Shown piece after piece: positions 18,685-21,968 of a stretch of 21,968 nucleotides of DNA (the first letter of the stretch is position 1; each line of letters opens with the position of its first letter). Position numbers and translations under genes: made by a program. The notes under the pieces were generated by a model. It made no database searches. It had not been told where the DNA came from and saw nothing but the letters and a program-made list of their open reading frames with translations. This DNA is from a bacterium. Its GTDB lineage: Bacteria > Hinthialibacterota > Hinthialibacteria > Hinthialibacterales > Hinthialibacteraceae. The stretch is taken from NCBI GenBank assembly GCA_041946805.1, contig JBHGBC010000098.1, positions 1-21,968 of the forward strand, given 5' to 3'.

Positions 18685-18911
18685 TGGCTTTATTTAATTT
18701 CGTATATTTAAATAATTTTTGTTTATAATTATTATATACAAAGTCATATTTACAGACGAGCGTTGGATTGAATGTTTTAGTGAGTCACCGATGATTGATG
18801 AATTTCTTCGTTTGTTGATACGTTAACGAGACTTCGTATCACTCCGTCTTTCCCTGTTATCCGTATCTTGCACTGCTTTCCTATGGGTTGATGGCGAGTA
18901 GGGATGTTCCA

Positions 18912-19901
18912 ATGACTCGCATCCTTGGGAGAGGAAGGTGGATCCGCTACTCACCACGGCCGTGGGCGGCCGTGCTGGGTTTTCTCCTTCTTTTCCCGGC
19001 GGCGGGGCGGGTGCAAGAAATCACCGCCCCGTTGCCCCCAATCCCTGAAATGCGTCCCATCGAATTCGGCCTGAACCTCTCCACCCTGATCCTGGAAGAA
19101 ACCGGCACCGAGGGCGAATACCTTTCGCCGGAGACCGCCTCGTTCCGCCTGCTCAGCTGGATCGACGATTGGCGGGTCTCGTGCGTGGCCGAAGCGGCGG
19201 TTGGTCCGGAGGGAGAGACCATCCCGCCAACCCATTTTTACCTGCTCGGGGGCGCCAACGGCGCTTCCGCCAGCCTGGAGCAGCCGGTGGTGATCGCGGA
19301 AGGGGGGCCGTTGGAGGGCAAGCCGGTCGACGCCGCCTCTTTCCGGCTCTGCGCGCGGATCGATCCCCTGCAGCCGGCAGGCGAATACCGGGGAACCCTT
19401 CTGTTCTATATCGAGACCGGGCGGAAGGGCACGGTGATCACCGGCCCGTCGTTGCCCTTCATGTTTCAATGCCGCGAGTTCATCAAGGTGTGGGTGAGCG
19501 AGGACATGGCATTCGGGACCTGCCAGCCGGGGATCAACCAGCCGCGGGACCATATATCCCAGACCACGCCCAAGGTGACGGTGCTCACCAACCGCCGGGG
19601 CGTGAAAGTCCACGCCGAGATGACCGACCTGAGTTACGAAGAGGGACCCGGCGGCGGGGGCGGCCCGATCACCGGCTCGCAACTGGCGCTGGCCTACGGC
19701 GAAACCCCGGGTTTGGCGCGCGGCAACGCGGCTTCCGCCCCCTTGGGAGGAACGGCGATCGACTGGTACCCCTACCCGCGCTCGGGCGCTTGGCCCTTTT
19801 GCGACCGTTCGATTTACCTCGGCGGCAAGGTGAGCATCGACCTGCACAACTCCGCCGGATTTTACCGGGGCGTGATCTACGTGACGTGCGAGGCGGAATG
19901 A
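18912..19901 (+). CDS. Secreted two-domain beta-rich protein, putative pilus tip/minor subunit
   Basis: Signal-like N-terminus (WAAVLGFLLLFPAAG). Both halves end in a pilin-type terminal strand: IDPLQPAGEYRGTLLFYI and IDLHNSAGFYRGVIYVTC. Start uncertain (18888, 18891 or 18912). Confidence 0.6.
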   Translation: MTRILGRGRWIRYSPRPWAAVLGFLLLFPAAGRVQEITAPLPPIPEMRPIEFGLNLSTLILEETGTEGEYLSPETASFRLLSWIDDWRVSCVAEAAVGPEGETIPPTHFYLLGGANGASASLEQPVVIAEGGPLEGKPVDAASFRLCARIDPLQPAGEYRGTLLFYIETGRKGTVITGPSLPFMFQCREFIKVWVSEDMAFGTCQPGINQPRDHISQTTPKVTVLTNRRGVKVHAEMTDLSYEEGPGGGGGPITGSQLALAYGETPGLARGNAASAPLGGTAIDWYPYPRSGAWPFCDRSIYLGGKVSIDLHNSAGFYRGVIYVTCEAE

Positions 19902-19903
19902 TT

Positions 19904-20193
19904 CCAGGGGCAAAATGCCAGGGGCGAAGTGCCAGGGGCGGTGCCCCTGGCTAAGCTAAGGCCACCCCTTCGGGGTTCAAAAAATGAAATGAAGCCCTGG
20001 AAGGGCGCATTCTGATTAGCCAGGGGTAAAACCCCTGGCGAGGAGGAATGCCAAGGATTTTGAGGCCAGGGGTTGTACCCCTGGCTAACCTTGGGTCACC
20101 CCTCCGGGGTTCAAAAAATGAAATGAAGCCCTGGAAGGGCGCTTTCTGATTAGCCAGGGGCATCGCCCCTGGCGGGAGGAACGCCAAGGATTT
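19904..20193. repeat. REP/BIME-like palindromic array: two ~130-bp tandem units (19931-20060, 20065-20193) plus two partial CCAGGGGC copies
   Basis: Each unit has GCCAGGGG-N-CCCCTGGC twice, ACCCC-N3-GGGGT, TCAAAAAATGAAATGAA and GCCCTGGAAGGGC; period 133-134 nt. Confidence 0.85.
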
Positions 20194-20564
20194 GCAAGTC
20201 AGGAGAATCGCCCCGGGCGGAGGCCCCCTCCGGGGGATAAATACCAATGCCGTTTCCGGACCGTTGTTGCGCCGGGTAGGAAAATCGTTGGGAGCCGGTT
20301 GCAAGGGACGAACGTCCCCAAAGGTCCCGCTCCAGGAAAAAGGTCCAAAACCTGGGATGTTCCATGCGGAGCATCCGAACCATAGTCCGTTCCCCCGAAG
20401 ACCGGGGAACGATGCCGTTCGATCGCTCGAACACCGGACCTTATTTCTTGGAACTTGAAAACACGGGACTTGGGAAGAATTCGACCTGGAGCCCGCGAAG
20501 GGGAATACCCGTGGATCAAAGGAACAGGAAAGCGGTGAAAGGAGGTGAAAACGATACCCGAGAC

Positions 20565-20603
20565 AAAAAAACCGCCCGGAGAAAGGCTAGTTTCCCCGGA
20601 CGG
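20565..20603 (-). terminator. Rho-independent terminator on the minus strand
   Basis: Minus strand reads CCGTCCGGGGAAA-CTAGCC-TTTCTCCGGGCGG-T7. The two non-Watson-Crick positions are G-U on the minus strand but A-C on the plus strand. Confidence 0.75.
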
Positions 20604-20661
20604 CCGGCCGTGAGGCCAAGGCTCCGGAGGGCGCTGGTCGCGGACCCCATCCGAAGGCCTG

Positions 20662-20670
20662 TGCTACATT
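20662..20670 (+). promoter_or_regulatory. Candidate extended -10 promoter for the riboswitch-pilin transcript
   Basis: TG-c-TACATT, predicting +1 near 20677; lies within the inverted repeat GTGCT-N7-AGCAC (20661-20677); no good -35. Confidence 0.45.
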
Positions 20671-20713
20671 GAAGCACGAATCGCGTTCCGCGGCAACCAA
20701 GAAGTAATGCGAA

Positions 20714-20789
20714 CGTGGAGGCGACGATCCGCCGTCCCGAATGTGGTCATCTATGGGACGGCGGGGAGCCAGTGGTGAAACCGGCCGCG
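20714..20789 (+). ncRNA. Cyclic di-GMP-II riboswitch aptamer
   Basis: P1 CGTGG/CCGCG; unpaired A20719; P2 GGC/GCC; tandem GA/GA kink-turn (20726-27, 20766-67); P3 CCGCCGTCCC/GGGACGGCGG; loop TGGTCATC can pseudoknot with GGTGA-A-ACCG. The 3' segment GAGCCAGTGGTGAAACCGGCC fits the class II pattern GAGYYAGTRGTGMAACCGRCY. Confidence 0.85.
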
Positions 20790-20814
20790 CAATCCATGCG
20801 AAAGGAACACGATC

Positions 20815-21309
20815 ATGAAATACTTCATTCCCATGTTCGCACTGCTGGCGTTGTTTGCCGCGCCGGTGATTGTTGCAGATGATACTTCGGTAGCAATTAA
20901 CCTTACTGTTGATGAGGTAATGTATGCATATTTTGGAGATGGATCTGATATGGCTGATGTTGTTTTGGAATTTGATCCTCAAACGGGTTTTAAAGATCCG
21001 TATTCGGGAACACATGCAGATATCGATTTAACTGCTAAAGCGTATGCGAATGAAAATTTGGCAGTGACTTTCACTCTAACTAAACCAGAGGGTTCATCAG
21101 CACCAGGAACATGGACACTTAGTGTTTATAAAGATTATGGATATGGTTCGGGTTCCTGGGTAGTAGGAAACCCTAGTACTCATTATCAACCTCTAGGAGA
21201 AGATGAAAGAAATTATTCAATTGCGGTAGATATTGATATTCCTTTAAACACTCCTGCTTTTGTGACTACAACAGCTGGTACTTTAGTTATTACTTTTGCT
21301 GGATATTAA
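20815..21309 (+). CDS. Secreted 164-aa beta-rich protein, putative major pilin of a chaperone-assembled pilus
   Basis: GAAAGGA RBS; Sec signal peptide; mature N-terminus DDTSVAINLTVDE has alternating hydrophobic residues (donor-strand-like); ends AGTLVITFAGY; no Cys; no type IV prepilin G/FxxxE motif. Confidence 0.65.
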   Translation: MKYFIPMFALLALFAAPVIVADDTSVAINLTVDEVMYAYFGDGSDMADVVLEFDPQTGFKDPYSGTHADIDLTAKAYANENLAVTFTLTKPEGSSAPGTWTLSVYKDYGYGSGSWVVGNPSTHYQPLGEDERNYSIAVDIDIPLNTPAFVTTTAGTLVITFAGY

Positions 21310-21341: not shown

Positions 21342-21375
21342 ATATCCGGGAAATATTTTTCCGGATATCTTTTTT
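21342..21375 (+). terminator. Terminator/stabilising hairpin between the pilin-like and chaperone-like genes
   Basis: ATATCCGGGAAA-TAT-TTTTCCGGATAT followed by C and T6. Confidence 0.65.
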
Positions 21376-21405
21376 AAGAGTTATCATAAATAGGTAATGA
21401 TAGAT

Positions 21406-21968
21406 ATGAAAAATAATTATATATACATTATAGTCTTTTATCTATTTGCTGTAATTGATTTTCCTCTACCTGTATATAGTCAAGGTTTTTTAATAAAACC
21501 GTTGAAAATCCATTGTTATCCTTATCCTGGTAGAATCATTGAAGAAAAACTTGTAATAAGAAATATATTATCGAATAAAAACATTATTGTTGATCTTAAT
21601 GTCAGTGATTTAACTCAAAATGATGAAGGTGCTTGGAAAATAATTGATTCCAATAATTCACCAGATAACAAATATTTATATTCGTGTAAAGACTGGATTT
21701 CATTAAATACGAATACCTTAGAAATCTCACCTTTAAACTCCGTTACGTTAAACATACGTATAAAAGTTCCTGCGAATAAATATGGATTTTATACAGCTTG
21801 TCTTCTTGCTCAAACAAGGAAAGAACCCAATGTAAAAGGCATTGCTGTTGTTATCAGATATCTGATTCCAATTTTAGTTGAAATTAAAGGTCCTGTTCTA
21901 AAAAAACAAATTGAAATAACAGATGCTAATATTAAAAATTTGGAATCTAATGATAAAATCAAATCAAA
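21406..21968 (+). CDS. Secreted Ig-fold protein, putative pilus assembly chaperone (PapD-like or DUF916-like); partial, runs off the window
   Basis: Not in the ORF track. Frame is open from ATG 21397/21406 to the end: MKNNYIYIIVFYLFAVIDFPLPVYSQGFLIKPLKIHC...PGRIIEEKLVIRN...SCKDWISLNTNTLEISPLNSVTLNIRIKVP...GFYTACLL...IRYLIPILVEIKG. Confidence 0.7.
   Translation, partial: MKNNYIYIIVFYLFAVIDFPLPVYSQGFLIKPLKIHCYPYPGRIIEEKLVIRNILSNKNIIVDLNVSDLTQNDEGAWKIIDSNNSPDNKYLYSCKDWISLNTNTLEISPLNSVTLNIRIKVPANKYGFYTACLLAQTRKEPNVKGIAVVIRYLIPILVEIKGPVLKKQIEITDANIKNLESNDKIKS

Follow-up and report, generated by a model that had tools for sequence, protein, structure and literature searches.

A c-di-GMP-II riboswitch candidate whose predicted switch helix lies within codons 6 to 9 of the gene that it precedes

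The locus and its aptamer

The DNA analysed here, called the window throughout, is the whole stretch of 21,968 nucleotides of contig JBHGBC010000098.1 (NCBI GenBank assembly GCA_041946805.1), from a bacterium of the Hinthialibacteraceae. Near its 3′ end, on the plus strand, lies an aptamer of the c-di-GMP-II class (20714..20789), followed by a Shine-Dalgarno (SD)-like purine run (20800..20807), a first ORF of 164 amino acids (20815..21309) and, 3′ of this ORF, a terminator-like hairpin (21342..21368). A second plus-strand ORF (21397..21968) is cut by the contig end and has a weak match to WxLIP_PGBD (E 5.4e-5) that falls below the cut-off. The upstream neighbourhood holds three further elements. 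A GC-rich plus-strand ORF of 337 amino acids (18888-19901) has no Pfam or NCBIfam match, but by eye contains two segments that each close with a glycine-tyrosine strand, as the C-termini of aptamer-associated proteins do, and may be part of the same fibre system. Two palindromic repeat units (19901-20218), spaced 134 nt and 88% alike over 110 nt, are presumably REP-like; their long copies were found on the window contig only, and their weak Rfam matches lie far below the cut-off. Finally, at 20520-20605 a perfect SD-like GGAGGTGA has no evident ORF after it and precedes a minus-strand terminator-like hairpin of 15 pairs; together they may be what is left of a small gene, or belong to an antisense unit.

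The protein encoded by the first ORF has a hydrophobic N-terminus, by eye a likely signal peptide, and a loose layout that is common to the proteins behind related aptamers (15-26% identity). A search among 5.8 billion proteins and 1.84 billion representatives returned the protein itself only, there was no Pfam or NCBIfam match of note, and in five relatives the best matches were either weak or extended over no more than the first 24-35 residues. Atlas suggests SCPU (score 0.92, 39% of members) and DUF4402, both below the bar for naming a family, and the structure models (pLDDT 35 and 45) were unusable and gave no Foldseek match. These weak leads suggest a protein that may be pilin-like. The GC3 of the ORF is 0.70 in codons 1-20 (yidC, 0.74) and 0.11-0.25 afterwards, a step after codon 20 that makes the remainder of the gene look acquired, and the riboswitch with the signal-peptide codons native.

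A first-pass annotation, made from the letters alone, had placed the element in the c-di-GMP-II class, with coordinates that all agree with the sequence, and covariance-model searches bear the assignment out. Positions 20708-20795 match RF01786 with 60.3 bits (E 2.1e-11; gathering score 53.5), which is the one match that Rfam lists for the window at gathering score; two overlapping matches from the same clan score lower, and the variant models do not outscore it. Specifically, the sequence can be read as; 1) P1 (20714-18/20785-89); 2) P2 (20720-22/20768-70); 3) P3 (20729-38/20755-64); 4) a pseudoknot (20747-51/20774-78); and, 5) a kink-turn, recognised by its sequence motif only. Across 22 aptamers of the lineage P2, P3 and the pseudoknot are 94% paired, 14 of the 19 pairs have changed on both sides, and none of 500 shuffles reached a covariation as high. 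Compensatory changes had been claimed for both P2 and the pseudoknot of the window. The pseudoknot does carry them (G-C to U-A and C-G to U.G against the Rfam consensus), whereas the G-C, G-C, C-G form of P2 is identical to that consensus and so not unusual.

In the structure 3Q3Z the first P2 pair is A14-U60 and the ligand contacts A69, A70 and G73 (PMC13715770). Counted from the first P2 pair, A20771, A20779, A20780 and G20783 of the window are the equivalents of A61, A69, A70 and G73, and with the last three of them at the contact positions, and the first as the ceiling adenine, the pocket is canonical, which rules out a ligand-specificity variant as far as sequence can tell. Nor does the element belong to the c-di-GMP-II-GAG or -GCG variants, whose names we take to denote an altered pocket triad, since RF01786 is the best match of the clan and the triad reads A, A, G. 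The first P2 pair of the window is G-C, unlike the A-U of the solved structures, and this is the engineered change that shifts cGAMP affinities about threefold (PMC13715770), but being also the Rfam consensus it is no sign of a specificity variant. An A.G pair sits atop P1, as in the B. halodurans RNA (PMC13715770). Judged in this way the aptamer is an ordinary RF01786 member, and it would be expected to bind c-di-GMP.

Both the Rfam model and the lineage model find this single copy in the genome (6.7 Mb, 97% complete), and three DNA read runs held no strain variants across the riboswitch. The genome encodes one protein that reads by eye as REC-PAS-GGDEF-EAL, with GGDEF and EAL motifs both intact; co-occurrence of riboswitch and GGDEF gene is uninformative as evidence, because 34 of the 35 genomes of the class have the full domain. 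The one that lacks a full GGDEF match (at E<=1e-25), G001, is the only other genome of the genus (98% complete), and it has no aptamer match.

P1 ends at 20789 and the SD-like run starts at 20800, in agreement with the spacing first described, and the absence of a terminator from this interval is likewise borne out; the plus strand from 20790 to 20815 holds no terminator-like site, which rules out an intrinsic-terminator riboswitch and sets the window apart from RF01786 and 3Q3Z. Searching the assembly by motif for a 16S 3′ end gave chance matches only.

Predicted pairing of the P1 strand with codons 6 to 9

When the fold is extended to 20845, a predicted helix emerges that involves one strand of the aptamer itself. 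The predicted switch strand (20705..20718, plus strand) comprises a 5′ extension (20705-20713) and the P1 5′ strand (20714-20718), and positions 20708-20718 of it pair with a target in the coding sequence (20831..20841), which is +17 to +27 of the ORF, or codons 6-9. All 11 of 11 pairs can form, ten of them Watson-Crick and one G.U (shuffle p 0.001), and an equal helix from +17 to +27 to anywhere in -130 to -60 was found for 1 of 1563 control genes of the same genome. As both helices need the same five bases (20714-20718), the +17 helix excludes P1. It lies 14-24 nt beyond the point at which the first-pass annotation stopped, inside the coding sequence, and in the fold prediction it adjoins a 5-bp start-codon hairpin (20815..20828, plus strand). 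Native-looking codons 1-20 would be expected if the control element extends into codon 9.

To place this helix among related aptamers, several searches were combined. RF01786 matched 7 of 61 genomes at E<=0.001, three of these above the cut-off, and the model built from the 22 lineage aptamers matched 6 of the 35 genomes of the class, including that of the window, with 22 matches in one genome (G017) alone. Pattern scans added at least 121 genome and at least 120 metagenome stretches; the scan pattern was derived from the lineage of the window, so that the family is not sampled at random and most clostridial members are absent. After removal of duplicates there were 213 aptamers among the matches listed, of which the 106 with a start codon and an SD word within about 70 nt were analysed and 107 dropped. 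Four new aptamers with a near ORF came from R1 searches of 75, 132 and 151 genomes. No locus was added by pattern searches of 168 and 401 genomes, none of 32 viral pattern matches held an aptamer, and a strict pattern had no match in metagenomes.

In a first test the duplex of the switch strand was significant in 18 of 93 homologs, ten of which reached the lowest attainable value, p 0.005. When 79 registers were then scanned in the 106 aptamers, duplexes with 10 or more of 11 pairs (7 or more of them Watson-Crick) stood at only two places, -22 to -20 (7 loci) and +17 (4 loci, against 0.13 expected from swaps). With 11 of 11 pairs required, only -20 and +17 remain, with three loci each; both peaks persist at other thresholds, and with 9 of 11 required many registers show a scatter of 1-3 loci. 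The four +17 loci are that of the window, two from metagenomes (L237 and L265) and L305, from genome G270, which is in the same phylum as G063, a genome whose locus is labelled Candidatus Latescibacterota. L305 was found after the +17 register had been noticed in the other three and is one of the four new aptamers with a near ORF; the threshold of 7 Watson-Crick pairs was chosen after it had been seen, and at 8 or more it drops out.

Within the four loci 43 of 44 pairs are kept, against 18-52% on sliding by 1-3 columns. Two columns have changed on both sides in a compensatory manner and five on one side, a modest covariation that a column-shuffle control reaches in 25 of 500 trials. For three of the four coding targets the own leader is the best duplex partner, the exception being L305. 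The proteins of L237, L265 and L305 are 18-23% identical to that of the window, and the second ORF of the window is homologous to the second gene behind L305 (22% identity, E 3e-12); with this gene shared, the +17 layout may have arisen once, among what are four related loci only. Weaker helices to +6 to +24 occur at two loci of G017 (L004, p 0.022; L009, p 0.035).

At the other peak the same strand has a different partner. In L056, L123 (two), L164, L171, L015 and L016, and also in L002, L081, L136, L142 and L179, the P1 5′ strand and its extension cover the SD itself, at about -20, a layout that occurs in Halanaerobiales-type genomes and in the class of the window.

The survey gave other observations on the family. 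G017, of the same family as the window genome, carries among its 22 matches two triplets and a doublet arranged back-to-back with no platform between (C38:19821-20076, C106:58402-58656, C18:33777-33950 and others), most of them ahead of genes whose products are likely exported; tandem c-di-GMP-II arrays as such are known, with 59 doublets and 9 triplets reported in the accessible part of PMC9481103. At L015 a triple aptamer precedes a gene that ends after 47 codons, and behind this gene comes an ORF of 316 amino acids that is transposase-like by eye. Moreover, 22 of the 213 aptamers among the matches listed have no G at or beside position 73, and many of these lack A70 as well (among them L005, L006, L010-L014, L017, L020, L022, L023, L266, L301, L068, L295, L067, L075, L076, L188, L209 and L291). 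Besides the class of the window, they occur at loci with the labels Acidimicrobiaceae and Saccharibacteria; all have the same form of the pseudoknot 3′ strand, and those that were scored lie below the Rfam cut-off. By sequence they are candidates for a pocket variant, possibly with another ligand, or are possibly degenerate. A role of their CCUCC-like 3′ strand as an anti-SD was rejected, as the shift is small (median -6.7 against -5.3 kcal/mol; 17 against 89 loci).

Direction of control and competing explanations

We propose, with moderate confidence, that the P1 5′ strand toggles between P1 and the 11-pair helix with codons 6-9, and that c-di-GMP likely switches on, through this element, the translation of an exported, likely pilin-type protein. 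In the ligand-free RNA, +17 to +27 would be taken up by 20708-20718, P1 would be broken, and the SD and start codon would be closed in a junction beside the start-codon hairpin, leading to poor loading of the 30S subunit. If c-di-GMP is bound during transcription, P1 would keep 20714-20718, at most the part from +22 onward would stay paired, and initiation could proceed. The free fold is predicted to lie about 10-15 kcal/mol below the bound fold, in calculations that include neither pseudoknot nor tertiary energy, and the switch would therefore have to be kinetic; the ligand would need to be in place before the polymerase reaches +17 to +27, some 40-50 nt beyond the point at which P1 is completed. 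Formation of the helix in cells is inferred, as is the binding of c-di-GMP.

The earlier claim of a translational ON switch stands as regards control at the level of translation, and its direction is probable, with models that divide according to footprint and constraint. With the pseudoknot strand protected in both states, ligand cuts the predicted cost of opening the initiation site by 0.8-1.2 kcal/mol for footprints that end at or before +16 and by 5.9-7.6 kcal/mol for those that reach +18 or beyond. If this strand is allowed to mispair, the calculation for the window gives OFF with a footprint of -18 to +13 (6.7 free against 9.4 bound) and ON only when the footprint is -18 to +20. For L265 hardly any switching is predicted (0.0-0.7), and among the SD-type aptamers 4 of the 12 modelled compute near zero or negative. 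In short, the effect that the P1-exclusive +17 helix has on the SD depends on the footprint and varies with the folding model. The boundary matters, since the accessible part of PMC7549644 puts the 30S toeprint about 15 nt downstream of the start codon, so that +17 may fall outside it.

Three lines of evidence favour ON. The same strand covers the SD itself in seven sister loci, class II switches in C. difficile turn on pili and adhesins (as stated in the available part of PMC11477304), and the +17 helix of both L237 and L265 is directly adjoined by a hairpin between the SD and +10 to +16 (ranks 3 and 17 of 106), at the place where the window has its 5-bp start-codon hairpin. On this combination of modelling and analogy c-di-GMP likely turns translation on.

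The same helix could act with the opposite sign, either by serving, when ligand-free, as a ‘starting block’ at the 30S leading edge or by pulling the coding strand off the SD, so that c-di-GMP would turn translation off. We consider this unlikely, though a serious rival. It would account for a register of exactly +17 in all four loci, just past the toeprint, and stem-loops near +20 do activate initiation in E. coli fepA and bamA, going by the accessible portions of PMC12692685 and PMC7769764. In RNAs ending at 20845, moreover, the SD of the window is predicted to be more accessible free (0.66) than bound (0.26-0.42), and the unconstrained model gives OFF for the shorter footprint. Set against these points are the sister layout, which places the same strand on the SD and so fits ON, the pseudoknot-protected model, which gives ON, and the nature of the fepA element, a local stem-loop and not a long-range helix. 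The SD hairpin of L237 and L265 abutting the +17 helix would also repress, although its equivalents rank only 45 in L305 and 71 in the window.

The mechanism of the first-pass annotation differs in the helix itself. In it the SD and the P1 3′ strand are taken up together by a far leader (20680..20694, plus strand), a capture that ligand loosens to turn expression on. The complementarity is real, with 9 of 10 positions of 20680-20689 matching 20804-20813; that to the P1 3′ strand also exists (20690-20694), but C20689 had been counted in both helices and can serve only one. The leader/SD duplex is stronger than shuffles (p 0.005, in a post hoc test; p 0.009 and 0.057 with partners swapped one way and the other), ranks first in this among 93 loci, and is in the minimum free energy fold of 20677-20835. 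A candidate extended -10 element just upstream (TGn-TACATT, 20662..20670, plus strand) would start transcription near 20677. The promoter had been claimed from this motif, which is indeed present and whose general form TGnTAnnnT occurs 211 times sense against 125 times antisense upstream of 1548 genes of the genome, but the consensus scan did not list it and no -35 match accompanies it.

The leader helix does not, however, compete with P1, because it closes around the whole aptamer. In RNA ending at 20825 it is predicted to form with a probability of 0.98 in the free state and 1.0 once the aptamer is fixed, and P1 and the leader helix together reach -37.0 kcal/mol, against -40.2 kcal/mol for the fold with the anti-P1 part that had been taken as the OFF state. 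In RNA extended to 20845 the probability becomes 0.0 free and 0.03-0.75 bound, and once codons 6-10 are present removal of the leader leaves the predicted opening costs unchanged. Among homologs the duplex is at about chance level (3 of 93 at p<=0.05; significant on both swaps in 1 of 106), which rules out a far-leader anti-SD as a family trait, and the other +17 loci do without it (L237, p 0.96; L265, p 0.42; L305, outside the top 8 of 106). The far leader thus looks particular to the window locus, its complementarity to the SD is probably not the switch, and it is possibly a transient or auxiliary lock. Even in softer forms, with the SD locked only until the coding strand (20814-20835) has been made, or with the leader pairing as a second helix, in pseudoknot fashion across the +17 helix, we regard the model as improbable. 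The earlier reading was right on class, probably right on direction and likely wrong on which helix switches.

Equally doubtful is a role for the +17 helix after initiation or in RNA stability (as a ribonuclease substrate, in Rho loading, or in an aptamer reset by the first ribosome), or an element that is a relic before a newly acquired AT-rich gene; the helix does sit where the first elongating ribosome must unwind it, the fall in GC3 from 0.70 to 0.11-0.25 suggests a recent join, and the closest relative, G001, has neither aptamer match nor full GGDEF domain, but aptamer and +17 helix are both intact in the window and its genome has an intact GGDEF-EAL protein.

Relation to known platforms and meaning

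The preferred reading, a toggle of the P1 5′ strand between P1 and codons 6-9, can be compared with three known systems. With the C. difficile class II switches the window shares the aptamer class, a position before a possible pilus-type gene and the expected ON direction; those switches are ON and stand before pilus and adhesin genes, but act on transcription or, in Cdi2_1, on translation through splicing of a group I intron (accessible part of PMC11477304), and the window has neither a terminator before the gene nor a visible intron. With riboswitches that sequester the ribosome binding site (RBS), and with the seven SD-targeting c-di-GMP-II loci, it would share a P1 5′ strand that swaps P1 for a downstream partner near the start codon. 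Translational platforms are said to ‘almost invariably contain’ the RBS (available part of PMC10907184), whereas the predicted partner in the window, +17 to +27, lies downstream of both SD and start codon. Like the stem-loops of fepA and bamA, the predicted helix stands at the 3′ edge of the initiation footprint, within the coding sequence, but theirs are local hairpins broken by sRNAs (accessible portions of PMC12692685 and PMC7769764) and that of the window would be a long-range helix broken by a ligand-binding aptamer.

A full-text literature search, which covered mostly listings and the starts of abstracts and a minority of the subscription papers, returned no description of a c-di-GMP-II platform that pairs P1 with coding sequence. 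The available part of PMC12667848 does not mention c-di-GMP, and those of PMC5737381 and PMC12697547 hold nothing specific on such a platform. The platform would appear to be a new form, with a predicted switch helix in the coding sequence at a fixed +17, kept in four diverged loci.

A more far-reaching possibility, which we put forward only tentatively, is that this is a natural riboswitch whose switching helix lies wholly within the coding sequence, fixed at +17, which is the leading edge of the initiating ribosome, where its formation or removal would gate initiation at the mRNA entry channel, as a block or a starting block, without covering the SD, and would tie the signal-peptide codons to the aptamer so that both travel as one cassette before exchangeable surface proteins. 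Translational riboswitches are expected to hide or expose the RBS, and searches for platforms usually cover the stretch from aptamer to start codon. If the +17 helix is the switch, the c-di-GMP-II platform reaches into codons 6-9, and a direct translational mode would be added to a class that has been described mainly as terminator-based. The locus would also offer a natural system, tunable by ligand, in which to ask whether initiation is blocked or helped by a helix at +17, and a codon-level constraint on the signal peptide would be explained.
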